This document shows, in pieces, positions 27,465 to 48,578 of a stretch of DNA of 64,000 nucleotides. Origin of the DNA: Pyrinomonadaceae bacterium (GTDB taxonomy: Bacteria; Acidobacteriota; Blastocatellia; Pyrinomonadales; Pyrinomonadaceae); assembly GCA_041750855.1 (NCBI GenBank), contig JBGSYT010000172.1, positions 6,802 to 70,801 of the forward strand. Direction: 5' to 3'. The notes under the pieces are model-generated. The model ran no database searches and was not told the origin of the DNA. It saw only the letters and a list, made by a program, of their open reading frames with translations. The translations under genes were made by a program, and so were the position numbers. Position 1 is the stretch's first letter. The number at the start of each line of letters is the position of its first letter.

Positions 27465-27478
27465 GGCAGGATAGGTCT

Positions 27479-28357: not shown

Positions 28358-28405
28358 AGTACTTTAGGTCTGATTCAAGAGACCGGAGAATAGAGACAGC
28401 GGTTT

Positions 28406-29566: not shown

Positions 29567-29594
29567 AAATTGCCGTCCATGCTTTAATAGAACC

Positions 29595-31798: not shown

Positions 31799-34700
31799 AT
31801 GTTAGGGCCATCGTATTCACTTTCGATGCTGCGTTTCCTTGAACTTCCGGCGCGACATCGCACTTGGTTCACACGCCCGTTGGTGGTGCTGTTACTTGTG
31901 TGGCCGCTTTCGTTCAACGTCGATTCAGTAGGTCAGATCAACCCCACACGAGAAAGCAAGCCGCCCATTTCGCTGCCAGATGTGAGGGCGAAAGATCCTC
32001 ATTCCGCATCTCAAGCGGGGGCAGGGGAACGACAGACGAGAATTGACGCCCTGGCGGGCCGGATCGCCGCAGCGGAAACCGAGGCCGAAGCAGACGCTTT
32101 GCTCCGAGCGGAATCTGATCTAGTGAGTGTCGAGTTAGCGCAGGCGCTGTTCTTCGAAACGCTTCGATTGAGGAATACGCCGGTCCCGCGGGAAAGGATC
32201 TTGACGGTGAGTCTCCGTCTGCTTCGGTATGTCGAGCGTTCCGAAATAGGGCCGGCGCGCGGCATTGCCCAACGCGGGGCAGGCGTTGCCTACTCCAATT
32301 TGGAAAACTGGGTTTTGGCCGAGCAGCATCTTTCGGTCGCAATATCGTTGTTCACCAGACAGGGGCTCGGCGGTCGGCAGGATGTCATCCGGTCATCCCT
32401 CGACCTGGCATCCGTATACCACCGTAAAGGCGATACCCGCCGAGCACTCGAACAATATCAGAAGGTGCGCATGCTCGCTCGCGATCAAGGCGATCGCGAA
32501 AGCGTAGTACAAGCCGGCAATGGCATGGCGGCTGTTTACCTTCAGATCGGGGATTTTGCGAATGCGTATTCAAATCTTGAGCAAAGTCTTTCTGTCGCGG
32601 AGACCCTGGTGGACAAGGGCCCCGAGTTGTCAACACTTGTACAGCTTGCATCGACCTTCCTTAATCAAGGCCGACTTGGAAAGGCTGTCGAAGCTCAGGA
32701 AAAGGCTTACCGAACAGCGGTGGAGTCCGGCTCCGCCGCACGCCTGAATTACTTGTTCCAGACGGCGGTCTTGCACATCAAACTGGGAGATCTTCCGACG
32801 GCATATTTGCGATTTCGACGGGTGATAGCGGAATCGGAGAAAGGCGGTGACCAGAGCCTTTATTTTTACTCGCTGCTTAATGTCGCCCAGATCAACGAAC
32901 GGTACGGACGCTACAAAAAGGCGGCCGAACTCTACCAACGCGTCATCGAGATCGCGGACGAGGGACTCAAGGATCCTTCATCGATCGCGGGTCGGATCTA
33001 TGTAACCGGCAAAGTCGAGGCCATCGCCAGGCTTGCGGAAATGCGCATAAGTCGCGGTGAAGAAAGGGAAGCGATCGACCTTTACAAGCAGAACCTGGAA
33101 GTTTTGGGTTCGGCCCAGACGGCATCCGAGCCGGACCCGAGATATCAATCGAAGGAGGCCTATGCTGCACTCGATGTATCGGTTCGTACGAGTTTGGCCG
33201 ACCTTTACTCTTCGCGTGGAGATCGATCTGAAGCAGAATCCCATTACTCGTCTGCGCTTGTTATCGCCGAGAAGATCCGCTCGCATTCGGGCTCAATAGA
33301 TACGCTGCTTAGTATGGCCCGGCATGCGGCCATCAATGGAGAGCCTGCGATCGCGGGTGCGTACCTTGTCCGCGCGGAAACGTATGTTCAGCGGCACGGC
33401 CGGCTTGATCAGCTCGTCAAGCTGAGGACGACCGAAGCCGAGGTGCTCGTCAAACTTGGACGGCCCGCGGCGGCCGATCTCAAGTTTCAGGAAGCACTAA
33501 GGATGTCCGAATCGCTTCGGACCGATGTCACAATGCCGGATCAGCGAGCGTCGTATTTTGCGGGCCTCTTCAGACCTTTCGACCAATACATTGATTTCCT
33601 GATGGAACGTCACGCGAAGCAGCCTGATGCCGGTTTCGACAGGCGTGCCTTCGACGTAAGCGAAAGGCGTCGGGCCCGCGCACTGCTCGATTCTCTTCGG
33701 GTTGCCCGTGCGGATATTCGGCAAGGTGTAGACCGTTCCTTGCTGGAGGAAGAGGAACGGATACGCGGTCAGATGAATTCGGCGGCACGCGATCATTTCG
33801 GTGGGGTTGAGCCCCTGCTCTTTAGCGTGGAAACAGACGGCGAACATCTGAGGGCCCCTGCCGGATCTCCGAAAACCGACATATCGTATTTGGCTGCAGA
33901 ACTAACACGGATTGAAACGGCAATCCGGAAACGAAGTCCCCGCTATGCAGAGCTGATGCAGCCGCGACCCCTGCGATCATATTCTATACAGGCACTCCTG
34001 GATGAAGACACGATCCTTTTGAACTACACCCTTGGAGAAAAACAGAGCTACCTGTGGGCGATCGACAGCAGATCCGTCAGCAGTTTCGTTCTCCCGCCTC
34101 GCGAAACGATCGAGAATCTGATCAAGGTGGGGTACGCGGGTATGAGCGACGACTCGATGGCGGAGGAACGGAACACCCAAGCTGTTCCTGAAGCCGAAAC
34201 GTTATCCCGCGTTCTTCTCGGGCCCGTGGCCGGTCTGATGGGGGGCCGCAGAATCGTCGTGGTCGCTGATGGAGCCTTGCAATATCTTCCTTTCTCGAGC
34301 CTACCCGATCCTCGGCAGCCGGACGCGTTTGGCCGTTCGATGCTGTTAGCAAACGAAATTCAGTTCGCACCATCTGCATCGGTCGTTTCTGTCCTTCGGG
34401 AGGATTTTCGGGGTCGAGAAAAGGCATCACGGTCCGTAGCAATTTTTGCCGATCCCGTTTTTTCAGAAAACGATGAAAGGTTAGGCGGCCGCACGGATGA
34501 GCGGGAGCTGAACGAGCGGTCCGCTGAGGAGTCGATCACTCGCGATCTTTTCCTCCCACGAATTGGCAAAGACGAAGATTGGAATGGAAAACCCAATATT
34601 GCGCGTTTGCCGTTCTCGCGCCGCGAAGCGGATGCGATCTTCGATAGCTCGCCCGCTGGAAGTTCGATCAAAGCAGTTGATTTCGAGGCCAGCCGGGAGC

Positions 34701-35176
34701 GGATGGCGAGCATCGATCTGTCCGCGTACCGGATCGTCCATTTCGCGACTCACGGCATCCTGAACAGCGAGCAGCCTGAACTTTCCGGAATAGTACTTTC
34801 ACTGGTGAACGAAAAGGGCGAGCCGGTGAACGGGTTCCTGCGGCTGAATGAGATCTACAACATGAAGCTTAATGCGGATCTCGTGGTACTCAGTGCTTGT
34901 CAGACGGCCCTTGGGAAAGAGGTTAGGGGTGAAGGGCTGATCGGCCTGACGCGCGGGTTCATGTACGCCGGCACCCCGAGAGTTGTCGCGAGCCTATGGA
35001 AGGTGGACGACGTGGCGACGGCGGAGTTGATGAAGATCTTTTATCAGAAAATGCTGAAGGAAAAGATGCGCCCGGCGGCGGCCTTGCGTGAGGCGAAGAT
35101 CACGATGATGAAGCAAAAGAGGTGGGCCGCGCCCTACTACTGGGCCGCCTTCGAGCTCCAGGGCGACTGGCGTTGA
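31799..35176 (+). CDS. TPR-repeat CHAT-domain protein 1 (caspase-like clan CD peptidase fold), probably exported
   Basis: It has a hydrophobic N-terminal segment (RPLVVLLLVWPLSF) and a long TPR array. The C-terminal CHAT core carries His (IVHFATHG) and Cys (LVVLSACQT). Confidence 0.85.
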   Translation: MLGPSYSLSMLRFLELPARHRTWFTRPLVVLLLVWPLSFNVDSVGQINPTRESKPPISLPDVRAKDPHSASQAGAGERQTRIDALAGRIAAAETEAEADALLRAESDLVSVELAQALFFETLRLRNTPVPRERILTVSLRLLRYVERSEIGPARGIAQRGAGVAYSNLENWVLAEQHLSVAISLFTRQGLGGRQDVIRSSLDLASVYHRKGDTRRALEQYQKVRMLARDQGDRESVVQAGNGMAAVYLQIGDFANAYSNLEQSLSVAETLVDKGPELSTLVQLASTFLNQGRLGKAVEAQEKAYRTAVESGSAARLNYLFQTAVLHIKLGDLPTAYLRFRRVIAESEKGGDQSLYFYSLLNVAQINERYGRYKKAAELYQRVIEIADEGLKDPSSIAGRIYVTGKVEAIARLAEMRISRGEEREAIDLYKQNLEVLGSAQTASEPDPRYQSKEAYAALDVSVRTSLADLYSSRGDRSEAESHYSSALVIAEKIRSHSGSIDTLLSMARHAAINGEPAIAGAYLVRAETYVQRHGRLDQLVKLRTTEAEVLVKLGRPAAADLKFQEALRMSESLRTDVTMPDQRASYFAGLFRPFDQYIDFLMERHAKQPDAGFDRRAFDVSERRRARALLDSLRVARADIRQGVDRSLLEEEERIRGQMNSAARDHFGGVEPLLFSVETDGEHLRAPAGSPKTDISYLAAELTRIETAIRKRSPRYAELMQPRPLRSYSIQALLDEDTILLNYTLGEKQSYLWAIDSRSVSSFVLPPRETIENLIKVGYAGMSDDSMAEERNTQAVPEAETLSRVLLGPVAGLMGGRRIVVVADGALQYLPFSSLPDPRQPDAFGRSMLLANEIQFAPSASVVSVLREDFRGREKASRSVAIFADPVFSENDERLGGRTDERELNERSAEESITRDLFLPRIGKDEDWNGKPNIARLPFSRREADAIFDSSPAGSSIKAVDFEASRERMASIDLSAYRIVHFATHGILNSEQPELSGIVLSLVNEKGEPVNGFLRLNEIYNMKLNADLVVLSACQTALGKEVRGEGLIGLTRGFMYAGTPRVVASLWKVDDVATAELMKIFYQKMLKEKMRPAAALREAKITMMKQKRWAAPYYWAAFELQGDWR
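34733..35176. repeat. Left arm of a 444-bp inverted repeat (3' end of CHAT gene 1)
   Basis: A hand alignment to the reverse complement of 40750..41193 gives about 55 mismatches in 444 nt. It includes a perfect 57-nt tract (35045..35101 versus 40825..40881). Confidence 0.85.
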
Positions 35177-35257
35177 GCGGACTTGGCCTTTTCGCTTTCG
35201 CCCCCAACGACAGCCCTCAATTGCGGGATGGTCAATGGGTAGTGCTTCGCGATGAGC

Positions 35258-35737
35258 TCACCGGGCGATTCCCGTGACCTGGTCGACTATCAACTGCCAG
35301 CGGCCGTCGCGCTTTTCCCATACGTGGACACTGCGGAAAGAATTTCCGAAACGCTTGGTGCCGTCGGCGAGTGTTGTAACTGCTCTCCCCGTCGCCGTTA
35401 CAATCGCGACATTCTTGAAAAGCCTGATACTCTGGTTAGAAATGACGAACTTCAGCGTGGAACCCACGGATACTTTTCGTTCCCGACTTGCCCGCTGCGC
35501 TTCGACATCCTGATCCCTTGTATACACTCGCCCGCTTGGGCCGACGTGGTAACTGTCGTCAGCAAGCAAATACCCGATCCTTTCCGCGTCGGAGTCCTCA
35601 TTGATCCTGTTCCACTCGACCTCAAGCTGCTCGATCTCTCGAAGGTCGGACAAATGGGAGGCAGCCTCGTTCCGTTGGCCAAAAGTAGCCATGGTCACCA
35701 GCAAGAGAGAGAAAATTATCAAGAAAGGTTTAAACAT
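35258..35737 (-). CDS. Secreted NTF2-like (SnoaL/DUF4440-type) protein
   Basis: It has a signal peptide (MFKPFLIIFSLLLVTMATFGQ). The C-terminal WEKRDGRWQLI pattern is typical of DUF4440-like NTF2 folds. Confidence 0.6.
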   Translation of the reverse strand: MFKPFLIIFSLLLVTMATFGQRNEAASHLSDLREIEQLEVEWNRINEDSDAERIGYLLADDSYHVGPSGRVYTRDQDVEAQRASRERKVSVGSTLKFVISNQSIRLFKNVAIVTATGRAVTTLADGTKRFGNSFRSVHVWEKRDGRWQLIVDQVTGIAR

Positions 35738-35775
35738 AAAGCCTCCGCTTACAGAAAATGTCAGTAAATAGCAAC

Positions 35776-36150
35776 CTATTTTGCCTTCGAATAAACGTAG
35801 ATCACACCGATCATCAAGGCAAACCCCGCACCGACGCCGAGCACCACCTTGGCTGTGTTCGGCCAGCCTCGTTTTTTCACATTCTCAACGTCGCGGTAAG
35901 AAATTATGCTCGACTGGGTTTGTTTGTCCAGAGTGACATCGAATGAATCATCCAAAATCTGGCTGATGCTGCCTCTAAGTTTCTTCCCGTCTTTGAGGAA
36001 TACTGTAACCTTTGCACCGGCCCCTAGCTTGTTGACCTGGGCCTTGATCCGCTGATCACCCGTGGAAGACTCTGACTGCCCTAATAAAATCTGTGCATTT
36101 GCGAAAAACAAGATCGCTCCGAGAAAAAGAATAGTCGCTTTGCTAAACAT
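35776..36150 (-). CDS. Small exported protein, paralog A: signal peptide + ~55-aa beta-rich domain + C-terminal TM anchor
   Basis: The ATG at 36150 is preceded by GGAGGA. The protein is ~80% identical to paralog B across the core (KVTV.LKDG.K.+GSISQIL.DSFDVTL ... SSIISYRDVENVK+RGW). Confidence 0.65.
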   Translation of the reverse strand: MFSKATILFLGAILFFANAQILLGQSESSTGDQRIKAQVNKLGAGAKVTVFLKDGKKLRGSISQILDDSFDVTLDKQTQSSIISYRDVENVKKRGWPNTAKVVLGVGAGFALMIGVIYVYSKAK

Positions 36151-36247
36151 TGTTCCTCCAACCTGACTCACCAGCCTGCCGCGGCCCGTTCGCGAAAAGC
36201 CGCTATCGTCATCAAGACGAATATGATCACCGCGGTCTCATGGTAAA

Positions 36248-36658
36248 TTAACGTGGACTATTTAGAAAAACGGGCCCCAAATCATCCATCTTAGCGAGAG
36301 CTACCACAATGACCACGACGACCACAACAGCTCCGATACCGACGCCAAGGCCGATCTTGGCGGCGTTCGACCAGCCACGCCTTTTTACGTTCTCAACGTC
36401 GCGGTAAGAGATGATGCTCGACTGGATCTGGTTTTCCAAAGTGACATCGAATGAATCCTCGAGTATTTGACTGATGCTGCCCTTCACCTTGGTCCCGTCT
36501 TTAAGAATTACAGTTACCTTCGCACCAGACCCAAGCTTGTTGACCTGGGTCCTGATCCGCTGGTCGGCCGCCATCGCGTCTGATTGGCCCAGAAGCATAC
36601 TGGTGTTTGCGAACAACAAGACAATCGCAAGAAATAGCCTTAACGTATTGTTGGACAT
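36248..36658 (-). CDS. Small exported protein, paralog B (tandem duplicate of A)
   Basis: The ATG at 36658 is preceded by AGGAGG. It has the same architecture as paralog A. Confidence 0.65.
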   Translation of the reverse strand: MSNNTLRLFLAIVLLFANTSMLLGQSDAMAADQRIRTQVNKLGSGAKVTVILKDGTKVKGSISQILEDSFDVTLENQIQSSIISYRDVENVKRRGWSNAAKIGLGVGIGAVVVVVVIVVALAKMDDLGPVFLNSPR

Positions 36659-36698
36659 TGATCCTCCTGATCACTCTGACTGGCCTAAAGCCCTTGTT

Positions 36699-37874
36699 CT
36701 ATTGCCTATCGATATGTAAATAGTACTCGCGTATCGTCTCCATATTTCCGTCAGCCGAGCGCCCCTCGAGCACAACAATATAGTCCTTACGTGACAACGA
36801 GTTTGCCGGAACAGTAACGGCAAGGGTTTTCGTGCCTGCGGTCGCAGCCGTCCTTAAATTCGATGCGCGCCACACCGTGCCTCCTCCGACCGTGGAAATT
36901 CGAACTGAATAAGTGGAATAAGCCCCGCCGCCGAACACCATACGGATGACAACGTTCTGCGTGGCTGAACCTATCTCGGCGGTATTTCGTCTGTTAGCGG
37001 ACCGCGACGCCGAATCGAGCGTCACAGTTTCGGTACGCACGCCGGCTATTTCGGTCCTTGGATCAGGTTGTTTCTGGAGTTCGGGAGTCGGCACAGGCAC
37101 GCCCTTGGTCGCAACATCGGGGAGCTTCGATTCCGGCGAATCCTTGTGCGACATTTGAGGTGCTCGCGGGGTCGGGGAGGAACCTGGAATCTGAGCGATC
37201 GTGTCCGAGGGAGTTGCTCGATCGGGGTTGACCGGCACCTCGCGTTCCTCAACCGGATTCAATTGTGACGGTTGATCACCGCTCTGGTGGGCGATGCTTT
37301 GGGAATTGCCATCAGTTTCCGGGCCATCCGGCCCCTTGACTAGAATTGGAGTTGTCTCCGACGGCACAGGAGGCTCGACCTGGGAATCCGCAATATTTTC
37401 AGGGATTTCTGGCTTAACGAGCGTCCACAACCCAACAGCCAGGACGGCAACAAGTATCCCGGCGGCTGCGAACCTGAACGGAGTGAAGATCATTCTTAGG
37501 CTCTCAAGGACACCCGCCGGTTTAGGCGGGGCGACGACCGGGTCGGACACGGGTACCCGCGATCGGTCGGCAATGCTCGAGATCGAATCGACAAAATCCC
37601 TTGACTCGGCTAGTCGCTTCCTGCGTGAGTTGGTTGAAAGGAAGTGGGGCTCCATGCGGCGGCGTTTTTCGGGATCCAATTCGTTTCGTGAGTAAAGGTC
37701 GAGAACCTCGTCCTTGACAGCGAGAAAATTGTTAAAGAAAGAATCGTCGTCGAAATACGCGGTTTCGAAACGCTCTTGCTCAGCCTCGGTCAGCTCGCCG
37801 AATAGATAGCGCTCGCACAATTCTTCATCGAACGGTAGATTGGCCGATGTGCCGTTTTCATTTGTTGTGCTCAT
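36699..37874 (-). CDS. Putative single-pass anti-sigma factor with a Pro/Ser/Thr-rich extracytoplasmic linker and a C-terminal beta-rich domain
   Basis: The ATG at 37874 forms an ATGA overlap with the sigma stop. The N-terminal motif CERYLFGELTEAEQERFE resembles anti-sigma N-domains. It has one TM (FAAAGILVAVLAVGLWTLV). The ORF track start at 37922 would overlap sigma by 52 nt. Confidence 0.6.
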   Translation of the reverse strand: MSTTNENGTSANLPFDEELCERYLFGELTEAEQERFETAYFDDDSFFNNFLAVKDEVLDLYSRNELDPEKRRRMEPHFLSTNSRRKRLAESRDFVDSISSIADRSRVPVSDPVVAPPKPAGVLESLRMIFTPFRFAAAGILVAVLAVGLWTLVKPEIPENIADSQVEPPVPSETTPILVKGPDGPETDGNSQSIAHQSGDQPSQLNPVEEREVPVNPDRATPSDTIAQIPGSSPTPRAPQMSHKDSPESKLPDVATKGVPVPTPELQKQPDPRTEIAGVRTETVTLDSASRSANRRNTAEIGSATQNVVIRMVFGGGAYSTYSVRISTVGGGTVWRASNLRTAATAGTKTLAVTVPANSLSRKDYIVVLEGRSADGNMETIREYYLHIDRQ

Positions 37875-38482
37875 ATGATCGCACCTCGTTTTAGCGAGCG
37901 GGAAATGCACTCGTCGGTGCATTTTGCCACTTCCCGGCGCAGGCGGCTCGCCCGCAGACGCAACGCGTTCATCGAAGAATTTAACCGCTCCGCTTGCCTT
38001 CTGCGCTGCTCGATCTTCGCGCCTTTCTCTTCTCGATAATACTCAATGATGAAAATGCGCGTGCTCTCAGCGAGCTGACTTAGACACTCATCCAGGCAAT
38101 CGAGCTTTTGCTCTAGTTCGATGCGGGCTTCGTCGGTGCCGTTATTAGAGTGGCGGTCCGCCACAGTTCTCTCGTCCAGCTCGACCGGTTGTTTCGAGAG
38201 GCCCCGCGACGCCTCGATCCAGACGTACCGGGCAACGCCGTAACAATAATTACCAAAATTATGGATCGTCTCGCCCTCGGTGATCTTGCGCATGACCCGA
38301 TCGAAGGTCTCGTCGGCATGTTCTTCGGGGGTACTGCTGCCGCGCGCTTCGAAGAATTCCAACAGTTTGCGTCGCGTGATCTCGTAATGCCGCCCCGCAC
38401 GTTCGCGGTCGGGGTCGAGATTCGCAAGAAGAAGGTCGAATGCTTCCGGCGTGACTGTCCATGTCGAGGCACGAATACCCAT
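37871..38482 (-). CDS. ECF-type sigma-70 family RNA polymerase sigma factor
   Basis: It is ~200 aa. The region-2-like segment is EEHADETFDRVMRKI ... YCYGVARYVWIE. The region-4-like HTH is LAESTRIFIIEYY ... ERLNSSMNALRLRASRLRREV. An anti-sigma-like gene is coupled downstream. Confidence 0.75.
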   Translation of the reverse strand: MGIRASTWTVTPEAFDLLLANLDPDRERAGRHYEITRRKLLEFFEARGSSTPEEHADETFDRVMRKITEGETIHNFGNYCYGVARYVWIEASRGLSKQPVELDERTVADRHSNNGTDEARIELEQKLDCLDECLSQLAESTRIFIIEYYREEKGAKIEQRRRQAERLNSSMNALRLRASRLRREVAKCTDECISRSLKRGAII

Positions 38483-38490
38483 TGGATCTA

Positions 38491-39279
38491 TTAGCTAGCC
38501 TTTCCGGTATGCGGCGACGTTATGACTATTTGAGGATCCAGCTCCCATTCGTATATCCAGCCGTTCGTTGATGTCTTGGAATCATATATCCAATCGAGGC
38601 GCGTTTGGGCCTTTACGAGCGCGCCGTTGCTTGTGTCGAACCAAAAGGTGACGTTGGCCCGAAGCTCGTGGGGCCCGGGCCGCAGCATTTCAGGCGAAAT
38701 GCCGTTGTAGTTATACACTCGGAGTGTCCTCCCGTTCACGGTTTCCTCCCTTTGGTAAGTAACAACGGCGGCCTGATTTGCGTGGCCGAGCGCAAACGCG
38801 GGATCCATAAGCTTCATGGAATGTCTCATCGCCGCCGCTGCTGCGGAGTTGTACTTTGCCCTCAGCTCTGTGTACTTCTTCACGTCGTTTTCAGCCAATG
38901 CCTTTTTTTCGGCCGCCGACCGTTCGGCTTCGGCCGCTTTGTACTCATCCTTTGTCTGAACCGTCCACGGGCCGTCGCCCGACAATTCGTAGATCGAATT
39001 CCCCGCGATCACAGCTTGAGCTACGGAGCTGCGGCCGTTGCCGCTGACTGTCGTTCGAACGTATCCGCGACTGCTCACTTCCGTCGTGGTTACCATATCC
39101 GGCTGCGGTATTGTGCGGGTTTGCGTAAAACGATATGAGCTCCCTCGCGTCAATTCACTGTTTACCCTAAGTCCGTCTCTTAGCATCCGAGTGAAGTCGG
39201 CGAACCGCACAAAACTTCCTTGCCCGAGCAAAGCCGGGGCAAAAACCGAAAAACTCAACGCGAACATTAGGAGTCTCAT
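38491..39279 (-). CDS. Secreted protein, LolA/RseB-like (tentative), paralog 1
   Basis: The signal peptide is MRLLMFALSFSVFAPALLGQ from the ATG at 39279. Alternative starts lie at 39357 (ATG) and 39423 (GTG). The C-terminal TFWFDTSNGALVKAQ ... YEWELDPQIVI matches its neighbour paralog. Confidence 0.5.
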   Translation of the reverse strand: MRLLMFALSFSVFAPALLGQGSFVRFADFTRMLRDGLRVNSELTRGSSYRFTQTRTIPQPDMVTTTEVSSRGYVRTTVSGNGRSSVAQAVIAGNSIYELSGDGPWTVQTKDEYKAAEAERSAAEKKALAENDVKKYTELRAKYNSAAAAAMRHSMKLMDPAFALGHANQAAVVTYQREETVNGRTLRVYNYNGISPEMLRPGPHELRANVTFWFDTSNGALVKAQTRLDWIYDSKTSTNGWIYEWELDPQIVITSPHTGKAS

Positions 39280-39346
39280 ACCTATTGCAGCGATTCGCGT
39301 CCTGCGTCGGATCGCCCAAAGTCCAACTTTACCTAATAGTCTTTCT

Positions 39347-40087
39347 TCATTTAACATAGGCTGGGGCTTCAATGCGGATCGAAGGGTCAAGCTCCCACTC
39401 CTGTATCGATTGCGTTCCCGCACCCGTTTTCCTGTTGATCTGCACGTCTTCTAATTTCACCAATCGACCGCTATCCGCCAGCCAGTATCGATTCGTTTGT
39501 TCCAGTTCGAACACGGTGCCGGGTTCCTTGCCTGGGTTCGAGGAAAATATAGTCCTTACGTATATCAGCAACACCTCTCCTTTGAACACCGCTGTCCCGA
39601 CCTTGAACTCGAACGTTGCTTCCGGTCTTAAAAACCTGAAAGTGCCGGGAGGTCCGGTCCTGGTGGTTTCAAACGGAGCTGCGGGCGGTATTGCCAACCC
39701 GTAATGTTCGCGGTCCTTACGTTGCCAGGCCCCGCGATTCCATCTGACAAATGTATCGTGGCCGACCGAGATGCTTTCCTGCTCAGATTTCTGATAAGGC
39801 GAATCAACGATCGTCAAATGCCGAGAGGATCCCACCGTGTCAAATTCCCGGATCTCCGAAACTCGTCCGAGTGGCTTTCCCTCGCCGTAATTCGACACTA
39901 TGCTTTTCGTGATCCGCCTTGCCTTTCCCTGCCACTCCGCCGGCGGACGACTGAACCCTTGCATCCCCCGGTCGAACATGTGAACGCTCACCGTTTGTTC
40001 CGCGCCTACACCGCCGGGACGCTCCACCTGAGCCTCTGCGATGCCAAGAGCCCACATCAGTATTGTTAGAATGATCAGTGGTCTCAT
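39347..40087 (-). CDS. Secreted protein, LolA/RseB-like (tentative), paralog 2
   Basis: The signal peptide is MRPLIILTILMWALGIAEAQ. The C-terminus is NRYWLADSGRLVKLE ... QEWELDPSIRI. It has an ATGA overlap with the upstream gene at 40084-40087. Confidence 0.5.
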   Translation of the reverse strand: MRPLIILTILMWALGIAEAQVERPGGVGAEQTVSVHMFDRGMQGFSRPPAEWQGKARRITKSIVSNYGEGKPLGRVSEIREFDTVGSSRHLTIVDSPYQKSEQESISVGHDTFVRWNRGAWQRKDREHYGLAIPPAAPFETTRTGPPGTFRFLRPEATFEFKVGTAVFKGEVLLIYVRTIFSSNPGKEPGTVFELEQTNRYWLADSGRLVKLEDVQINRKTGAGTQSIQEWELDPSIRIEAPAYVK

Positions 40088-40509
40088 CTGCTTTTCCTGA
40101 ACCCGTCTGGGAAAGGATCGATCTTGACCGTCGCAACCGCGATGGCAACTATCGTAATAACCGCAGCCACGCCAATTCCGGTTCCCAAAGCTATCAACGA
40201 TGCGTTCGACCAGCCGGCCTTTTTAATTCTGGCTACAGCATCATAATCGAAGGCCAACGGCTGCTCTCCTGGCTTTCTCACCAGCTCAAACGAATTGTCG
40301 CCGATGCGGCTTACAATTCCCTTGATCTCCGTCCCGTTAAGGAGCTCTATTTTTACTTTCTTCCCAACGCCTTGACCCAAGACGAAAGATCTGGCAATCG
40401 CAGCCCGCCGGGCCGATGCCGTAGTCCCTTGAGCCTGCGCGAGGTGCAAGCTGGTAAACGTGATCGTCAGGAAACAGCCTAAAACGATCGAGATAATGGT
40501 CCGGTGCAT
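40084..40509 (-). CDS. Small exported protein, paralog C (diverged relative of A and B)
   Basis: GGAGG lies 8 nt upstream of the ATG at 40509. It has a signal peptide, the core KVKIELLNGTEIKGIVSRIGDNSFELV ... AFDYDAVARIKKAGW, and a C-terminal Gly/Ala/Ile-rich TM. Confidence 0.6.
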   Translation of the reverse strand: MHRTIISIVLGCFLTITFTSLHLAQAQGTTASARRAAIARSFVLGQGVGKKVKIELLNGTEIKGIVSRIGDNSFELVRKPGEQPLAFDYDAVARIKKAGWSNASLIALGTGIGVAAVITIVAIAVATVKIDPFPDGFRKSR

Positions 40510-40749
40510 CTAAGGTCCTCCGTTCGGCCTGGATATTCGGTCGAAGGCGTTCCGGACAGAGATGGATCCGTCAGCAAAATTAAGATCCCTTGCGAATTCG
40601 ATCAAAGTCAGGCACTTCGTTCTGAGGTACTCCTTGGGGCCGACCTCGCTGTGAGAGTTTCGCAAAAGCCCTTCCGCGTCGCTTTGATCCCTTAAACATA
40701 CCGCCGCCGGATCGCCTTCCCTATTAAGTGAAGAAACAGAGGAATCATG

Positions 40750-41193
40750 TCAACGCCAGTCGCCCTGGAGCTCGAACGCGGCCCAGTAGTAGGGCTCCGC
40801 CCACCGCTTTTGCTGCATCATCGCGATCTTCGCCTCACGCAAGGCCGCCGCCGGGCGCATCTTTTCCTTCAGCATTTTCTGGTAAAAGATCTTCATCAAT
40901 TCGGCGGTTGCGACATCGTCCACCTTCCACAGGCTTGCGACAACTCTGGGGGTTCCGGCGTACATGAACCCACGCGTCAGGCCGATCAACCCTTCACCGC
41001 GCACCTCTTTGCCCAAAGCTGTCTGGCACGCACTCAGCACCACCAGGTCTGCATTGAGCTTCATGTTGTAGATCTCGTTCAGCCGCAAGAACCCGTTCAC
41101 CGGCTCGCCCTTCTCATTCACCAGCGACAACACGATCCCCGAAAGCTCAGGATGCTCACTGTGCAGAATACCGTGGGTTGCGAAGTGGACGAT
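40750..41193. repeat. Right arm of the 444-bp inverted repeat (3' end of CHAT gene 2)
   Basis: See the left arm. This arm encodes the His/Cys-containing C-terminal module of CHAT protein 2. Confidence 0.85.
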
Positions 41194-44100
41194 CCCGTAT
41201 TTCGTGAGGTCTGCATTCAGAAGCTTTTCGCGATCAGCGTTGAAGTCGAGAGCCTTAAGTGAATCCCTCGACAGCGCGGAGGCAAATATCTCTTCAGCTT
41301 CCTTCCGCGTGAATGGAAGACGTGGAATTGATAAAGATTCTCCTGGTTTGCCTATAAAATTGAAAGCCCGTTCCAGCAATATCCTGTTCAGATCGGGTTT
41401 TGCGGGTCCGTTGATTTTCGGTTGCTCTGCCCTGACGGCTGGCAGCCGCTCGTCGGTTTCCGAAAATACCGGGTCTGCAAAGATCGCGATAGTTTTTGTC
41501 GGCGGCTTTCGATCAGATATATCGCGACGTTGAACATCGAGCACGGAAGCCGAAGGTAAATTAACGGTCTCGAACTTGACGGCCAACGGCACGGAATCTG
41601 TATTTTGCTTCCCATTCTTCGAATTGGATTCCGGCGGCAGTGGCAGAGAACCGAACGGGAGATACTGCAAAGCGCCGTCCGAGACAATTACCAATCGCTT
41701 GCCTTTCAATTGCGAAAGAACACTAGGGGGTAATAGTTTTCGGCTCAAGGGCGAGGCGACTTGGGTAAATTCCGCAGCGATTGTTTCGTCCGATGCCCAG
41801 CGCTTTCCGTCATTAAGCAAACCTACAACACGTCGCACATCATTCTCGAGCTCGGCCCGACCGGGGAGCTCATAGTTTTTCAGTGAAGTAGAGGTGACAA
41901 CCCACAAAAAACTACGTTTGCCGCCCAAGGCATACTCGAGCAGAACCGTGTCGGCCTGAAGCAGATCGCGTTGTATTTCGCTTGCAGTCAGGGGCTGCGG
42001 CTGAGTCAATGCAGCATAACGAGGACTTTTCAAACGAATCTGCGCTTGGTTATTGCGATATTCAAAGGTGAGCGAATCGATCTCTTTTTTCAGCGCGGCG
42101 GCCTGTTCGGCGGTATATTTACCACTCCATAGTCGCGTTTGTTGTTCAGCCCTCTCGTTGAGTTGTTTCTGCAGCGTGCGCTCACGCTCTAATAATTCGG
42201 GCACAGCGCCTTGATCAATTTGCGTACGCGATTCGTTCAGGAGTTCTAGCAGCGAACGCGCTCTGCGGCGTTGGCTTATCTGGAAAGCCTGGACGTCATG
42301 GCCTTCTGCAGGCTGTTCGCTGTGCATCTGCATCAAAAGATCGATATAGGCTTCATACGTTCCCTCGTGCGTGGCAAAAAAGGCTGAGCGTGTATCCTGT
42401 CCGGCAATGCTGGCGCGGGTTAATTCGATTGCGACGATCGCCTCTTCAAATGCGATCCGTGATTTTTCGAAATGCTTCAAGCCATGATAAGCAAGGCCGA
42501 CCAAATAAAGTGCACGGGGAAGATCTGTGCGGTTGCCGATTTCTCTTAGCAGTGCTGCGGCCCGTTCGGCAGATTCTAGGGCCTGCACGAACTCGCCTTT
42601 CCCGGCGTAGGGATAAGCAATATTAATTAGCGCGGTCGCGATTTGAGACTTATTTCCGATTTCTTCGCTTAGTCTTAGAGTCTTTCGGCGGTATTCAAGC
42701 GCTTTGTCGTGATCGCCTTGTATTTGATAGAGGTTGCCGATCGCTTCCATTGTGAAAACGATCTGCCTTTTATTGCCGCCCGCTTCGTTCAACATCAAGC
42801 ATTTTTTATAAATGTACATCGCTTCCGCGAATTTCCCTTCCAGATACAAAATGCCGCCGATTTTCTCGAGAGCATTCGCGATCAGAGCTTGGTTTTTTAG
42901 TTCTTCGGATAAAATCAGACTTTCCTTATAAAACTCCGACGCCTTCCCTCTGTTTCCTAGTGCATGATGAAGTAGTCCATACGTCATAAAAATATGCGCC
43001 TTCAGCTCTTTGCTATCCAAGGATTCACTGATGGAGAGGGCCCTTTCAACATATTCCATCGAGTTAGTGAACTCGCCGAGCAGCCGGCTGTTGAGGGCCA
43101 TTAAATTGAGCGTCCAGGCGCTATTAGATTTATGGCCTGCCTCTTCACTTAGAGCCAAAGCCTTTCGGTTGTATTCTAAAGACGTCATGAAATTGCCTTG
43201 AAGAAAATAGACTTGGCCGATAGCATACAAAGCAGTAGCTTGCGCTGGCTTACTACCCGTTTCTTGAAAAATAATTAGGCCTTTCTGATAAGCTTCGATG
43301 GCGTCTGCGTAGTTGCCCGTGTGTAGATGAATCGATCCGATGTTGTATAGACTGCTGGCGACTCTTGACTTGACACCTAATTCATGAAAAAGTACCTGGC
43401 ATTTCTGAAAAGCTTCGATGGCGTCTGCGTACCTGCCCGTTTGTTGATGAATTGATGCGATGCTATGAAGTATGTCGGCGGCCCGCCCTTTGTTACCAAG
43501 CTCTTGAAATAGCGTGAGACTTCGCTCGTAAAATTCGAATGCCTGTGGCAAATGCTTTTGTTGCTGATGGATCTCTCCAAGATATAGGAGGCTATCCGCG
43601 AGTCTTACGTTGTCGCCTAACGATTCTCTAAGTTCTAGACTTTGCCGTAAGTACATTAACGCTTGATTTAATTCCCGCTGGTTGAAGAGTACAACCCCAA
43701 TGTTATAGACCGCGTCCGAGACACCGATTTTGTCGCCAATTCGTTCTGCCAGTTGTAAAGTAAATTGAGAGACGATGAGAGACGATGGGAATTTGTTTTG
43801 ATCGCGCAAACGTCGCCCGTGCCCATTCAGTTCGCGAATCAACTCTACCGTTACGAGGTCTTTGTCTTTGACCAGCATCGCCGCTCGCGCTTCTTCGGAA
43901 TCGGCGAAAACCAACGCCGCCGCAAAGCATTTTACCTTGTCTCGATCTTTCTCCTGCGAGGTCGCCGCTCGTATCGCCTCAATGCGTATCTGATAGCGTC
44001 CCGTCGTCGTCTTTTCTCGCGGACGCACTTCGATTCGATAGCTACCCGACCCGTTGGCGACAAACGAAAGAGCCTCCGATCCTTTTGAGCCGTTCGGACT

Positions 44101-44403
44101 ATCTACTTCCGCTAGACGTTCGCCTCCCGGCGCAAAAAGCACTAGTACAACGCCTACTGTGCGTTGTACGACAACGACGGAAACGAATTGTCCGGCTTTC
44201 GGCTCCAATGTATAGAGGTGAATATCCCCGCCTTTTAACTCCCCTTCAATTGGCTTGTCGGGTTCGAGTAACGACGGTGTCTGTGTTGTCGGATCGATAT
44301 TGGTTTGGGCGAAGCTAAGGACCGCATGTTGGGTAGCAAGCAGAACAATACAAATCAGGCGAACCGTCACAATTGGGGAAATGGTATTTCGGCAAACTTG
44401 CAT
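40750..44403 (-). CDS. PPC-like domain + TPR-repeat + CHAT-domain protein 2 (caspase-like), probably secreted
   Basis: The signal peptide is VRLICIVLLATQHAVLSFAQ. The N-terminal beta-sandwich resembles a pre-peptidase C-terminal domain (GDIHLYTLEPKAGQFVSVVV ... GSYRIEVRP ... GRYQIRIE). It has a long TPR array and a CHAT core with IVHFATHG and LVVLSACQT. Confidence 0.85.
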   Translation of the reverse strand: MQVCRNTISPIVTVRLICIVLLATQHAVLSFAQTNIDPTTQTPSLLEPDKPIEGELKGGDIHLYTLEPKAGQFVSVVVVQRTVGVVLVLFAPGGERLAEVDSPNGSKGSEALSFVANGSGSYRIEVRPREKTTTGRYQIRIEAIRAATSQEKDRDKVKCFAAALVFADSEEARAAMLVKDKDLVTVELIRELNGHGRRLRDQNKFPSSLIVSQFTLQLAERIGDKIGVSDAVYNIGVVLFNQRELNQALMYLRQSLELRESLGDNVRLADSLLYLGEIHQQQKHLPQAFEFYERSLTLFQELGNKGRAADILHSIASIHQQTGRYADAIEAFQKCQVLFHELGVKSRVASSLYNIGSIHLHTGNYADAIEAYQKGLIIFQETGSKPAQATALYAIGQVYFLQGNFMTSLEYNRKALALSEEAGHKSNSAWTLNLMALNSRLLGEFTNSMEYVERALSISESLDSKELKAHIFMTYGLLHHALGNRGKASEFYKESLILSEELKNQALIANALEKIGGILYLEGKFAEAMYIYKKCLMLNEAGGNKRQIVFTMEAIGNLYQIQGDHDKALEYRRKTLRLSEEIGNKSQIATALINIAYPYAGKGEFVQALESAERAAALLREIGNRTDLPRALYLVGLAYHGLKHFEKSRIAFEEAIVAIELTRASIAGQDTRSAFFATHEGTYEAYIDLLMQMHSEQPAEGHDVQAFQISQRRRARSLLELLNESRTQIDQGAVPELLERERTLQKQLNERAEQQTRLWSGKYTAEQAAALKKEIDSLTFEYRNNQAQIRLKSPRYAALTQPQPLTASEIQRDLLQADTVLLEYALGGKRSFLWVVTSTSLKNYELPGRAELENDVRRVVGLLNDGKRWASDETIAAEFTQVASPLSRKLLPPSVLSQLKGKRLVIVSDGALQYLPFGSLPLPPESNSKNGKQNTDSVPLAVKFETVNLPSASVLDVQRRDISDRKPPTKTIAIFADPVFSETDERLPAVRAEQPKINGPAKPDLNRILLERAFNFIGKPGESLSIPRLPFTRKEAEEIFASALSRDSLKALDFNADREKLLNADLTKYGIVHFATHGILHSEHPELSGIVLSLVNEKGEPVNGFLRLNEIYNMKLNADLVVLSACQTALGKEVRGEGLIGLTRGFMYAGTPRVVASLWKVDDVATAELMKIFYQKMLKEKMRPAAALREAKIAMMQQKRWAEPYYWAAFELQGDWR

Positions 44404-44592
44404 TAGGTTCAGGCCAACCGGTTCGGCTGAAAATATACTATTTCGGGCGATTTTTCAGCGCGAGTTTATCAGACTTTCTCCAACAATCAATCTTTTTTTC
44501 GCTGTTAGAAGCTAACCGTAACCGAGACCAGTCGAGAAAGCCGCGCGTCCATTTCTGGCGATATCCTGGAGGCGCATCCTGCTCCAGAGTGT

Positions 44593-45642
44593 TTACGGCC
44601 TCGTCCCATTCTCAAATCCAAGATTCACTGTCTGCCTTACCTCTTTTTTCTTCGACATTCGGTTCGGGGTATCCATCTGCATTTCCGCGGCAGAAAGTTG
44701 GTTTGTGACGGCCACGTCCTTGCCCACGACCTCGAGTTTCACGTCATCGACCCAAACGCGGCCGGTGCCGCTTAGGAGGGTGCCGAACAGTATGTTGACA
44801 GTTTCCGGTGGGACGTCCAGCACAACCTCGTATTGCTTCCAGTCGGTTGTGCCTTTGACCGCTCGCGGCATCATATTGTCGAAACCGAGAAGCCGCTTTT
44901 CGCCGTCGAGGCGCATCCACAGACCGGCAGCTTCAGCAGTGTCGGTCTTGAGCCAGCCTGACAGACGAACGCGTTTTCCTAGATAATCATCGGCGGCGAT
45001 CGCTTGAGCGAGTGAACCAAAGCCTTCGGCCGGTCCGCACGCGAACGCAAGCAACGCGCTTGCGTTTCCACTGCGTTTAACGGCGGTGTCCACCATCATC
45101 GAATATCGTTCTGCATTGCCGATCGGCGTTCGGATCCAGCCGGCCGGCATTCCCGCAACAACCTCCGGGACCGGTTTCGGAAGATCGGAACTGTGCTCGG
45201 CGACCAGTTTCCACCGGCCGTCGCGTTTCGCGAAAATGTTCGTGTAGCGTTCCTCAATCTCGCGGACCATGGATCCGCGGGTCATTTTTGTGACGATCTT
45301 GTAGTTCGCGATCGCGGTGTCGGCACCGGCCGCAATTACTTTTAGATCATCGATCTGGTATGAAAACTTCGCTCTGTCAGCTTCGGGCGTTTTGAAGTAT
45401 GCACGAAACTGCCGATTGGCGAGCTCAAATCTTTCGTATCCATTTCGCTCGCTGTAATAGAAACCATCATCCGCCGGCAGCGCCATTACCGCTGCCTCAT
45501 CGCCCCTGTGCCAGGCATGGTAGTAGTCCCGCACGACCTTCGCGATCTCAGCTTCCACCGTGCCGTTTTGCGCCAGAGTATCTTGAACTCCGCAAGCCGC
45601 AAGTAGTCCCAACATCACAATTAGGAAGATGTTTTGTTTCAT
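44593..45642 (-). CDS. Lipoprotein with an N-terminal NTF2-like (DUF4440-type) domain and a C-terminal jelly-roll-like domain
   Basis: The lipobox is LGLLAAC. The NTF2-like pattern is FAKRDGRWKLVAEH. The C-terminal beta-sandwich-like segment is VRLSGWLKTD ... WKQYEVVLDVP ... VWVDDVKLEV. Confidence 0.6.
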   Translation of the reverse strand: MKQNIFLIVMLGLLAACGVQDTLAQNGTVEAEIAKVVRDYYHAWHRGDEAAVMALPADDGFYYSERNGYERFELANRQFRAYFKTPEADRAKFSYQIDDLKVIAAGADTAIANYKIVTKMTRGSMVREIEERYTNIFAKRDGRWKLVAEHSSDLPKPVPEVVAGMPAGWIRTPIGNAERYSMMVDTAVKRSGNASALLAFACGPAEGFGSLAQAIAADDYLGKRVRLSGWLKTDTAEAAGLWMRLDGEKRLLGFDNMMPRAVKGTTDWKQYEVVLDVPPETVNILFGTLLSGTGRVWVDDVKLEVVGKDVAVTNQLSAAEMQMDTPNRMSKKKEVRQTVNLGFENGTRP

Positions 45643-45685: not shown

Positions 45686-46753
45686 TTATGGTTCGATCAC
45701 GAGGGTCGCGACCACTCCAGCATGATCCGACGGCCGCAATCCGGATGGCGTTATATCGGCAACCGGATCCTCGCCAACTACGTCGGAGCTAATTCCGCGT
45801 ATCGCCCCGCGAGTGAGGATCAGATCGATCCTTTGCGTCGGAGTAGTAAAGATTGACGGCTCCGTCAAAAACAGCGCCCATGTGTAACCAGGATCAGTCG
45901 GATTTGTCTTTTCCCAAACATCAGCATAGCCGGCACCTAGCATTAGGTGGTAGGTCGGCCCACCCGCTTCGGCGTCTGAGTTGAAGTCGCCGGCCAGAAT
46001 GACCGAAGAGCTGGTCGCCGCAGGTGTCTTAATCAGTTCTAAACCTTGAACGAACTGAATGCCCGGGTGAAATGATTCCAGATGAACGTTAATGAACCTG
46101 TAGGTTTTTCCGCGCATCTTGACGTCCACCGATGTCCAGCCTCGCGGGATAGTTACGTTGCCGAAGATCGCGGGCAAGGTCAGAAGGGTAGTGAATGTCT
46201 GAGCCTGGGATCCTTCGAGTTTGAACTGCGAATTTGCCAGATCGGTCCGGGCAAGTATTACGACTCGATCAGTATAGCGGACATCAGCCACTATCGCCGC
46301 TCCGGCAGCGGGCAGTTCGGCATCCAGATTCGTCTGCACCGCCACGGGACCGTAGCTCAGGCCTCGAGACGCTAATTCGTCTAACAGCATTTGAAGAAAA
46401 TCGTAGGCGACCGATGTGGCCGGTGCCTCATCGCCAAATGGCCCTGTCCGCCATAATGCCACCTCTTGTAGACCGACCAGAGTCGGCGATCCGGCTTCGA
46501 TCTGGTCCGCGATCGCGTTGATACGTTCCGCGGGGTTGCTGGCCTGAACATCACCGAATGCCTCCGCCACTTCCGTCACGAGTTCGGGAAATGACTGTGC
46601 GGCGAAGATCTCTGAGAAATCAGTGCCGGGATACATGTTATAGGTCATAACCACCAATTCACGGTCGCGGCTATTCGCATAGGTGGCCGGTAAATTGAGA
46701 CACAACAGAGCAATTGAGATGGTGAAAGCGAAAATGCGTCGCGGGGTAAACAT
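45686..46753 (-). CDS. Secreted endonuclease/exonuclease/phosphatase (EEP) family protein
   Basis: It has a signal peptide, the N-terminal VVMTYNMYPG and the C-terminal RPSDHAGVVATL, both typical of the EEP fold. AGGAGGA lies upstream of the ATG. Confidence 0.75.
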   Translation of the reverse strand: MFTPRRIFAFTISIALLCLNLPATYANSRDRELVVMTYNMYPGTDFSEIFAAQSFPELVTEVAEAFGDVQASNPAERINAIADQIEAGSPTLVGLQEVALWRTGPFGDEAPATSVAYDFLQMLLDELASRGLSYGPVAVQTNLDAELPAAGAAIVADVRYTDRVVILARTDLANSQFKLEGSQAQTFTTLLTLPAIFGNVTIPRGWTSVDVKMRGKTYRFINVHLESFHPGIQFVQGLELIKTPAATSSSVILAGDFNSDAEAGGPTYHLMLGAGYADVWEKTNPTDPGYTWALFLTEPSIFTTPTQRIDLILTRGAIRGISSDVVGEDPVADITPSGLRPSDHAGVVATLVIEP

Positions 46754-48012: not shown

Positions 48013-48578
48013 TTGGCTGGCTCCTTGCGCTGAATGCGGATGGAATTGCTGAACGCGCCAGGTGTACTGACATTTGAGGCGATGAACTTTTGCATGTTTT
48101 TGGACGAGTCGGTAAACAGTATCTCGCCGTCGATCATCGTGTATCGGACCGCAGTCGGGTTATTTTCGAGGAATGGCTTGAGCCATTTCGGTTCGAGATA
48201 GGAAAGTTGGAAAGTTCGTCCTTCGTTCGAGACCTGTACAAATGAATGGACGGGCAAAATGTGTCCTTTAAAGAAATCGTTTCCCGAGAGATGGGACTTC
48301 ACCGGGGCAATGTCCAGGAAAGTCCTTCCTTCGATCTTCAGCAGCCGGGCCTTGAACTCCCCCAGTTTTCCGTCCTCATCGGTGTGAACCAGCTTATAAA
48401 CCTTCTCGTCAGAGAAGGTGAATTCCCACGTCTCAGTTTTTTCATCGTCCGTCCAGACGCCGAGAAGCGCCCTATCAAAGATCAGATCCTGTTCCGTGTA
48501 CAGCGGATTCACCGACGGAACGCACGCGGTCTGGAACACAAGTAATGCCACTAAAACTATCGTATGTGCTTTCATCAT
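48009..48578 (-). CDS. Hypothetical lipoprotein
   Basis: The internal start MMKAHTIVLVALLVFQTAC gives a lipobox. The gene is translationally coupled to the SGNH hydrolase gene. The ORF track start is 48683. Confidence 0.5.
   Translation of the reverse strand: MMKAHTIVLVALLVFQTACVPSVNPLYTEQDLIFDRALLGVWTDDEKTETWEFTFSDEKVYKLVHTDEDGKLGEFKARLLKIEGRTFLDIAPVKSHLSGNDFFKGHILPVHSFVQVSNEGRTFQLSYLEPKWLKPFLENNPTAVRYTMIDGEILFTDSSKNMQKFIASNVSTPGAFSNSIRIQRKEPAK

Follow-up and report, generated by a model that had tools for sequence, protein, structure and literature searches.

In Escherichia coli sigma-E, a sigma factor of the extracytoplasmic function (ECF) type, is controlled by the anti-sigma RseA, with DegS as site-1 protease, RseP as site-2 protease and RseB as a periplasmic protein of the LolA fold. 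Here we describe a locus that resembles this and other described systems in part, located in a stretch of 64,000 nucleotides (nt) from a Pyrinomonadaceae bacterium (GenBank assembly GCA_041750855.1, contig JBGSYT010000172.1, positions 6,802 to 70,801 of the forward strand), which is referred to below as the window. Genes for two apparently exported proteins with a TPR array and a C-terminal caspase-like CHAT domain (CHAT1 and CHAT2) bracket a set of genes that encode a divergent ECF-type sigma factor, a predicted single-pass anti-sigma and several small proteins with export-type N-termini (Table 1). An earlier note on this DNA, made from the sequence alone, had proposed that a CHAT protein acts as the site-1 protease on the anti-sigma or, alternatively, that the CHAT proteins are the output of the sigma regulon.

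The locus shares with the RseA system a single-pass anti-sigma that is translationally coupled to an ECF sigma, a scheme of site-1 and then site-2 cleavage (proposed for the present locus), and an operon-encoded periplasmic protein of the LolA fold (RseB there, LolA-like 1 and 2 here). DegS is an unlinked PDZ serine protease, whereas the candidate here belongs to the clan CD cysteine proteases and has its gene in the operon. The LolA-like proteins also differ from RseB, which has a second, C-terminal domain for binding the periplasmic domain of the anti-sigma: they appear to be single-domain, have no sequence similarity to it, and are found in only about five of the loci examined, so that the system does not as a rule include an RseB-like modulator.

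In Myxococcus xanthus the single-pass anti-sigma DdvA has a periplasmic TPR-CHAT region of ~900 residues that includes a His/Cys dyad (PMC11506125, PMC6061681), and in the literature searched DdvA is the only case that links a TPR-CHAT protein to an anti-sigma in the periplasm. Removing this region permits cleavage by RseP. Its authors propose self-cleavage by the CHAT domain as the site-1 step, and by their account DdvA-like fusions are confined to Myxococcota and one Comamonas (PMC11506125). DdvA-DdvS and the present locus have in common an ECF-type sigma held by a single-pass anti-sigma, a TPR-CHAT region with a canonical dyad on the periplasmic side, a long flexible linker after the transmembrane helix, and a model in which CHAT acts at site 1 before RseP. 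In DdvA, however, the TPR-CHAT region is fused to the anti-sigma, whereas here a gene of its own, often present in two copies, encodes it as an apparently exported protein with a signal peptide; the anti-sigma (391 aa) is without a TPR or CHAT match and has a small beta-rich ectodomain where DdvA carries TPR-CHAT. It also differs from DdvA in having no zinc-binding CHCC/HxxxCxxC residues, and the sigma misses the Pfam sigma-70 families. CHAT domains of the DdvA type are distinguished by the absence of a three-helix motif and by an active site completed across a dimer. That these parts occur both fused and split is, for the domain families concerned, a Rosetta-stone type argument that they are functionally linked.

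DdvA-DdvS, so far the one characterised pairing of a periplasmic TPR-CHAT with an anti-sigma, controls CBASS and CRISPR-Cas (PMC11506125), and the locus described here could by analogy be an anti-phage regulator that senses phage in the periplasm and turns on a defence island. We regard this as very improbable, given that PADLOC models match no protein of the locus beyond a generic TPR and that genes for envelope proteins, hydrolases and housekeeping functions make up the neighbourhood, both in the window and at related loci. The defence island seen with DdvA-DdvS is rejected here on the negative PADLOC result, and no cas or defence genes were found in the locus (PADLOC), in ten sampled flanking open reading frames of the window, or among the called genes of the related loci.

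Two further systems join CHAT proteins to ECF-type sigma factors. In craspase the TPR-CHAT protein Csx29 cleaves Csx30, the inhibitor of an ECF-type sigma (CASP-sigma) (PMC10028731), and the proposal made here would share with it a TPR-CHAT protein that acts on a sigma inhibitor and is inactive until a signal arrives; craspase, however, is cytoplasmic, RNA-guided through Cas7-11 and part of a CRISPR locus, whereas the proteins described here have export signals. The ECF54 sigma factors of Actinobacteria are predicted to be regulated by neighbouring carboxypeptidase, subtilase and CHAT proteins (PMC8999054), so that a conserved genomic association of an ECF sigma with CHAT is read as proteolytic control in both cases. 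ECF54 is a gene-context prediction from another phylum and is described without an anti-sigma, whereas 51 of 53 of the loci analysed here have an anti-sigma of canonical appearance. In the light of DdvA (PMC11506125), Csx29 (PMC10028731) and the ECF54 context (PMC8999054), the earlier note's statement that it knew of no characterised example is outdated. The concept is no longer unprecedented, and what the locus adds to it is a split, exported TPR-CHAT protein paired with a divergent ECF-like sigma.

A conserved core of CHAT, sigma and anti-sigma genes

A genome scan yielded ten loci in metagenome-assembled genomes of Pyrinomonadaceae or Acidobacteriota, to which exact-protein look-ups added four long contigs and a metagenome scan 53 contigs. 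Identity of the sigma to that of the window is 44-83% across these loci. At least 300 nt are available upstream of sigma in 55 of them, and in 51 of the 55 the 3' end of a CHAT gene lies directly upstream on the same strand, its stop codon overlapping the sigma start in 14 loci. The anti-sigma gene is directly downstream of sigma in 51/53 loci. One of the four loci without an upstream CHAT is at a contig end, and the other three form one lineage with purA upstream.

The earlier note had made its proposal depend on conservation of the neighbourhood, and had drawn that neighbourhood to include CHAT, sigma and small proteins. CHAT and sigma indeed recur, but the small anchored proteins do so less regularly: among the 23 loci with enough DNA for accessory genes to be counted, they lie downstream of the anti-sigma in 13. 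Proteins of the endonuclease/exonuclease/phosphatase (EEP) family are found in 10 of the 23, GDSL-like proteins in six and NTF2a in four, with EEP and NTF2a located downstream of sigma. The accessory genes, among them those for the LolA-like, NTF2 and small anchored proteins, vary from locus to locus, and the conserved core is therefore CHAT, sigma and anti-sigma. Chance adjacency was considered and is rejected by conservation across loci; the gene context makes it very probable that CHAT is functionally linked with the sigma/anti-sigma pair.

Locus L011 is syntenic with the window (sigma 79% identical) and has an intact orthologue of the convergent CHAT1. Its CHAT2 orthologue has decayed to a C-terminal remnant of 71-77 aa (L011 9035-9268), and both LolA-like genes are gone.

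Features of the three core proteins

Both CHAT proteins match Pfam CHAT (PF12770) far above its cut-off of 24 bits (CHAT1 E=1.3e-68, 232 bits; CHAT2 E=6.6e-68, 229.7 bits) and have strong TPR arrays (TPR_12 at E=5e-79 in CHAT2, TPR_12 and TPR_MalT in CHAT1). A tandem 120-nt direct repeat (43246-43485, 73% identical) within the TPR array of CHAT2 encodes two neighbouring TPR_12-type units, each of ~40 aa. The His/Cys dyad that the earlier note saw in the motifs HFATHG and LSACQT is present in both proteins (His985/Cys1034 in CHAT1, His1077/Cys1126 in CHAT2), and HFATHG and VVLSACQT are invariant in 15 CHAT homologues. This invariance of the dyad and its surroundings argues for real protease activity, and CHAT1 and CHAT2 are putative clan CD caspase-like proteases with an intact dyad. 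The PPC-like domain assigned to CHAT2 in the earlier note is sub-threshold (E=0.0013-0.036, the lower value for the isolated N-terminus), although it recurs in 8/9 homologous CHAT N-termini (best E=6e-5).

Export of the CHAT proteins, for which the earlier note had pointed to their hydrophobic N-termini, is well supported by conservation of these termini in homologues. The N-terminus of CHAT1 has the hydrophobic run PLVVLLLVWPLSF, and signal peptides are more clearly seen in the CHAT1 orthologues of L011 and L016. The signal peptide of CHAT2, ending SFA-Q, is conserved among homologues, and in CHAT homologues of the PPC type the N-terminus ends FAQ, LAQ or AAQ with the PPC-like domain directly after. 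CHAT2 and sigma are exact matches to entries in the protein collection; CHAT1 as read from the ATG at 31799 has no exact entry there, and for this reason its gene has probably been called from another start, such as the Met of MLRFLELP nine codons downstream.

The 3' ends of CHAT1 and CHAT2 form a 450-nt inverted repeat, 88% identical, that spans both catalytic codons. Across 15 CHAT proteins the last ~190 residues are near-invariant while the accompanying sigmas are only ~50-65% identical, and conservation is thus higher at the catalytic end of CHAT than in sigma; between CHAT1 and CHAT2 the TPR halves share only 20-30% identity. When conserved residues of the last 150 codons are compared, third-position identity is 0.69 for the window pair and 0.79 for the pair in L003, compared to 0.48-0.58 between CHAT genes and their orthologues. 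Since synonymous positions agree better between co-resident paralogues than between orthologues, these values suggest some gene conversion over the catalytic codons on top of purifying selection. Purifying selection as the sole cause of the inverted repeat is rejected, as synonymous identity is raised in the co-resident paralogues. Recombination between the two arms would invert the 5.5-kb sigma operon, relocating it downstream of CHAT1 instead of CHAT2, and would leave both CHAT reading frames intact.

A conserved catalytic module combined with divergent TPR halves fits one fixed substrate and variable sensors. The anti-sigma, whose gene is a neighbour and whose long linker appears to be exposed, is the obvious candidate for that substrate.

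The sigma factor is divergent. The earlier note had called it ECF-type and had made the call subject to region 2/4 profile matches, and in this respect it fails, with no match to the Pfam sigma-70 families (Sigma70_r2, r4, r4_2) even at E<=10. The ECF-like character is supported by fold and by sub-threshold NCBIfam matches. The best sequence-profile match is TIGR02989 (Sig-70_gvs1, Rhodopirellula/Verrucomicrobium) at E=8e-13 over profile positions 29-157 of 158; its 48.6 bits are far below the cut-off of 124.55, and the protein is therefore a distant relative and not a member of that family. The sigma70-ECF superfamily model TIGR02937 matches at E=8e-5 (22.3 bits, cut-off 42.9). An AlphaFold model built with 71 homologues (pLDDT 79) has eight helices in two blocks separated by a disordered linker (98-114), giving the two-domain sigma2-linker-sigma4 architecture of ~200 aa without sigma1.1 or sigma3. 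Approximately the first 30 Foldseek matches of this model in the PDB are all ECF sigma factors, including AlgU, SigH, sigma-E, SigL, SigW, RpoE and CnrH, with a probability of 0.9-0.99 but E of ~0.01 and TM-scores of 0.3-0.4, values in keeping with two domains joined by a free hinge. Searching the PDB with the sigma profile retrieved SigH at no better than E=0.031, and hhalign of the sigma alignment with E. coli RpoE was uninformative, aligning only the sigma4 helix-turn-helix at a probability of 1.35%. From the sub-threshold profile matches, the modelled fold and the labels that JGI gives to homologues we conclude that the protein is a divergent ECF-type sigma factor.

We detected 373 homologues of this sigma, many of which have the JGI label "sigma24 family"; an organism label is available for three (one protein, L003 and L010) and reads Pyrinomonadaceae or Acidobacteriota. 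Proteins in which Pfam fails to recognise the sigma2 or the sigma4 domain were excluded from ECF classification 2.0 (PMC7826278). Given this entry rule and the Pfam result, the family is probably outside the current ECF classification. Four cysteines, Cys129, Cys133, Cys188 and Cys192 (CxxxC...CxxxC), are invariant in 71 homologues and Cys80 is nearly so, and these may constitute a metal or redox site on sigma itself or one shared across the sigma/anti-sigma complex.

The anti-sigma begins with a cytoplasmic-type domain in which the alignment reveals a conserved segment, C-x-RYLLGEL-x6-FE-x-AYF, followed by a transmembrane helix (~128-150), a linker that is rich in Pro/Ser/Thr/Gln and varies in length, and a C-terminal domain of ~110 aa that is beta-rich and conserved. 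The zf-HC2 match is weak (E=0.005, 17.3 bits, cut-off 22.2) and recurs in 9/10 homologues (best E=5e-4). The HxxxCxxC zinc motif is absent, its positions reading E-T/A-A-Y-F in the alignment, and only Cys20 and His77 are invariant there. All ten homologues have one hydrophobic 19-mer (score 1.7-2.9) that starts at ~123-139 and is preceded by basic residues. From this pattern we infer a single-pass protein, as in the earlier note, with its C-terminal domain on the extracytoplasmic side. Two variants depart from the common form. In L010 (10624-12525) the homologue is 633 aa long with an inserted CarboxypepD_reg-like domain (E=2.6e-16) and has the conserved C-terminal domain twice, and in L019, L021 and L061 it has Ala for Cys20, a short linker and a divergent C-terminal domain.

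Proposed site-1 cleavage by CHAT and its alternatives

Taking gene context and domain content together, we tentatively propose, at somewhat less than even odds, that the locus is a lineage-specific extracytoplasmic signalling module of Pyrinomonadaceae in which CHAT is the site-1 protease on the anti-sigma. The parts and their topology are those described above, and the first three steps are what we infer from them. The N-terminal domain of the anti-sigma would hold sigma in the cytoplasm, with the C-terminal beta-rich domain displayed outside the membrane on its low-complexity linker. In the first step the TPR array, together with the PPC-like domain where present, would sense a periplasmic or envelope cue and gate the CHAT active site; in the second, activated CHAT would cut the extracytoplasmic part of the anti-sigma, constituting site-1 cleavage; and in the third, an RseP-type site-2 protease and cytoplasmic proteases would free sigma. 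The fourth step is the weakest, with sigma transcribing the operon that encodes it and probably also nearby genes that code for exported hydrolases and proteins of lipid-binding fold. Two CHAT paralogues with near-identical catalytic halves and different TPR halves would provide two inputs to one sigma, and the module would amount to a split version of Myxococcus DdvA. More tentative again is the fuller claim that a free-standing, Sec-exported TPR-CHAT protein is a dedicated operon-encoded site-1 protease acting in trans, with paralogous sensors that share a gene-converted module feeding one unclassified ECF-like sigma.

Several observations weigh against this proposal. The CHAT-domain and anti-sigma profiles retrieve neither DdvA nor any other CHAT structure from the PDB (no match for the CHAT domain as a single sequence or as a 15-sequence profile, and only a spurious transmembrane match for the anti-sigma profile), and the parallel with DdvA is therefore one of domain families and not of close homology. 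The signal peptides were judged by eye and from hydropathy. In L019, L021 and L061 a purA-like gene (adenylosuccinate synthetase) and ~490 nt of intergenic sequence take the place of CHAT upstream of sigma. No conserved cleavage motif is seen in alignments of the variable anti-sigma linker, and Arg291, at the start of the C-terminal domain, is the sole invariant residue there. No ECF-type two-block promoter motif shared by 20 upstream regions (those of CHAT genes, sigma blocks and the lipoprotein gene) gave a signal, the best motif occurring in five sequences compared to three or four in shuffled controls. CHAT2 and sigma may moreover be transcribed separately in the window: a 240-nt gap follows CHAT2, for which reason CHAT2 is possibly not on the sigma transcript. 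This gap (40510-40749) has sequence blocks conserved with L011 and could contain an internal promoter; scans for promoters, terminators and Rfam families gave nothing within it. Lastly, the adjacency of the genes in an autoregulated ECF operon is equally well explained if CHAT is a co-expressed output.

In that alternative the anti-sigma ectodomain itself senses an envelope or nutrient cue, the exported CHAT proteins are induced together with an EEP-family phosphoesterase, an SGNH/GDSL-like hydrolase and binding proteins of the LolA-like and NTF2-like kinds, and CHAT cuts external or envelope substrates rather than the anti-sigma. ECF operons are commonly autoregulated, so that the first gene of an operon is also an output; exported hydrolases recur at the related loci in shuffled order (EEP in 10/23, GDSL-like in 6/23, and in L013 a ceramidase); secreted proteases typically have domains of the PPC-like kind; and the lack of a visible conserved cleavage motif in the linker also counts in its favour. 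It accounts less well for the near constancy of CHAT (51/55), often translationally coupled to sigma, where the hydrolases are optional, and near-identical catalytic halves with divergent TPR halves fit a single substrate better than varied external ones. We consider it rather unlikely, although a serious competitor.

A role for CHAT as partner or sensor is a less probable explanation still. CHAT could bind the C-terminal domain of the anti-sigma and shield it as a co-anti-sigma, much as the fused TPR-CHAT region of DdvA keeps RseP from cutting, or could cut other products of the module, such as small anchored protein A, B or C or a LolA-like protein, with another enzyme acting as site-1 protease. 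The conserved folded ectodomain of the anti-sigma is a possible docking site, the small anchored proteins recur in 13/23 loci, and in DdvA it is removal of the TPR-CHAT region that permits cleavage by RseP (PMC11506125). Against this role, the invariance of the dyad and its surroundings in 15 CHAT proteins points to real protease activity, and many loci with CHAT, sigma and anti-sigma lack the small and the LolA-like proteins.

If CHAT is the site-1 protease, the serine proteases and metalloproteases known as site-1 enzymes for anti-sigma factors would be joined by a new class, that of a caspase-like cysteine protease, and regulated intramembrane proteolysis would gain its first clan CD protease that acts in trans in the periplasm. 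The locus would also be a natural split form in support of the autoproteolysis proposed for DdvA. Cleavage of the anti-sigma by CHAT would give an easier handle on the DdvA question, as enzyme and substrate are separate proteins here, unlike the single DdvA polypeptide, and can be purified, mixed and mutated independently. The sigma family points to a gap in ECF catalogues, from which its 373 homologues have probably been left out, perhaps along with other such families. Pyrinomonadaceae occur in soil metagenomes, and little is known of how they regulate gene expression.

Organisation of the locus, accessory proteins and surroundings

The gene order and coordinates given in the earlier note are borne out by the open reading frame listing and translations (Table 1). 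Its description of the junctions as tight holds for the ATGA overlaps at 40084-40087 (small protein C and LolA-like 2) and 37871-37874 (sigma stop and anti-sigma start), for the 8-nt gap before the sigma start, and for the remaining operon gaps of 67, 40, 97 and 38 nt, but not for the gap between CHAT2 and small protein C, which is 240 nt and not under 100 nt. CHAT1 is convergent with NTF2a, their stop codons being separated by 81 nt. Upstream of CHAT2 there are four genes on the same strand, for the lipoprotein, the GDSL-like protein, the EEP-family protein and NTF2b, with gaps of -4, 122, 43 and 189 nt; the negative value reflects the 4-nt overlap of the lipoprotein stop (48009-48683) with the start of the GDSL-like gene. 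Every product has a hydrophobic signal-like start except sigma and the N-terminus of the anti-sigma. Scans for sigma-70 and terminator consensus sequences over 31-49 kb found fewer sites than in shuffled sequence, and neither Rfam matches nor tRNAs were found in the window.

Table 1. Coordinates of the genes and other features of the locus, numbered from the first position of the window.
Feature	Coordinates	Strand	Description
CHAT1	31799..35176	+	1125 aa; predicted exported TPR-CHAT protein without PPC domain
Inverted repeat, left arm	34727..35176		CHAT1 3' end, including the catalytic His and Cys codons
NTF2a	35258..35737	-	NTF2-like (DUF4440), signal-like N-terminus; last gene of the sigma operon
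Small anchored protein A	35776..36150	-	Predicted signal peptide, beta-rich domain and C-terminal transmembrane helix
Small anchored protein B	36248..36658	-	Paralogue of A and C
Anti-sigma	36699..37874	-	391 aa, predicted single-pass
Sigma	37871..38482	-	203 aa, divergent ECF-type
LolA-like 1	38491..39279	-	Predicted exported; paralogue of LolA-like 2
LolA-like 2	39347..40087	-	Predicted exported; predicted LolA-superfamily fold
Small anchored protein C	40084..40509	-	Paralogue of A and B
Intergenic region, CHAT2/small protein C	40510..40749	-	240 nt
CHAT2	40750..44403	-	1217 aa; predicted signal peptide, PPC-like beta-sandwich, TPR array, CHAT
Inverted repeat, right arm	40750..41199		CHAT2 3' end
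NTF2b, putative lipoprotein	44593..45642	-	N-terminal SnoaL/DUF4440 and a C-terminal half of ~190 aa without family
EEP-family exported protein	45686..46753	-	Pfam Exo_endo_phos E=1.7e-12
Putative SGNH/GDSL-like hydrolase	46876..48012	-	Weak Pfam Lipase_GDSL E=0.052; GDSH motif; twin-arginine-type N-terminus SRRYFLRQ
Putative lipoprotein	48009..48683	-	Without Pfam match

The two LolA-like proteins are paralogues with ~25% identity and a common C-terminal EWELDP motif. LolA-like 1 has a signal-like N-terminus, and although its reading frame extends to 39423 the signal-peptide Met is at 39279. The AlphaFold model of LolA-like 2 (246 aa; pLDDT 68.6, pTM 0.65) is a single beta domain of one helix and 11 strands, and Foldseek matches it in the PDB to LolA, LprG, RseB, LppX and LolB (E of 4e-6 to 1e-3, TM-scores up to 0.52). 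At E<=1e-3, 18/19 matches are LolA, LprG, LppX, RseB or proteins annotated as LolA-like, the other one being a haemophore. With moderate confidence we assign LolA-like 2 a LolA-superfamily fold on the basis of this model. The LolA/RseB-like call of the earlier note thus stands at the level of fold and not at that of sequence family, as the Pfam and NCBIfam models (LolA, MucB_RseB, LppX_LprAFG) match neither the LolA-like proteins nor ten sampled distant relatives. The family has 6-8 close homologues, and an exhaustive profile search expanded it to 241 representatives, from which the ten were sampled for Pfam.

Both NTF2-like calls of the earlier note were confirmed. NTF2a matches Pfam DUF4440 (E=2.5e-16), and the N-terminal half of NTF2b matches SnoaL_3 (E=1.8e-13) behind an N-terminus with a lipobox-like LLAAC; NTF2b orthologues are present in L007 and L011. 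Between a predicted signal peptide and a C-terminal transmembrane helix, the small proteins A, B and C each have a beta-rich domain of ~50 aa, and in family and PDB searches they gave only weak Hfq/Sm/SH3-like matches. In protein A the transmembrane-like segment starts at ~residue 99, and A is 68-72% identical to B over ~95-112 residues. Homologues of the lipoprotein (48009-48683) are found in L007, L011, L015 and L016.

A large beta-propeller protein of the FG-GAP/DUF5122 type recurs downstream of the module in L013, L015 and L016, and in L013 and L014 a gene of the ceramidase family follows the FG-GAP/DUF5122 protein. Together with the EEP, GDSL-like and LolA-fold proteins, these neighbours give a hint that the regulon is concerned with lipids or the envelope.

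In the window, the lipoprotein gene is divergent from a gene (48752-51238, +) for an 828-aa protein with a strong WD40 beta-propeller (~240-828) and an N-terminal region of ~240 aa without family. Further right, a run of envelope and protease genes (55015-63515, +) codes for a 1085-aa protein with CarboxypepD_reg and an outer-membrane beta-barrel, a 1094-aa tricorn-like S41 protease with PD40 and PDZ domains, and a 615-aa S15 X-Pro dipeptidyl peptidase. Upstream of CHAT1 there is a polysaccharide-related gene run (20641-31175, +), the members of which are heparinase II/III-like, asparagine synthase, glycosyltransferase, methyltransferase, UDP-GlcNAc 2-epimerase and right-handed beta-helix proteins.

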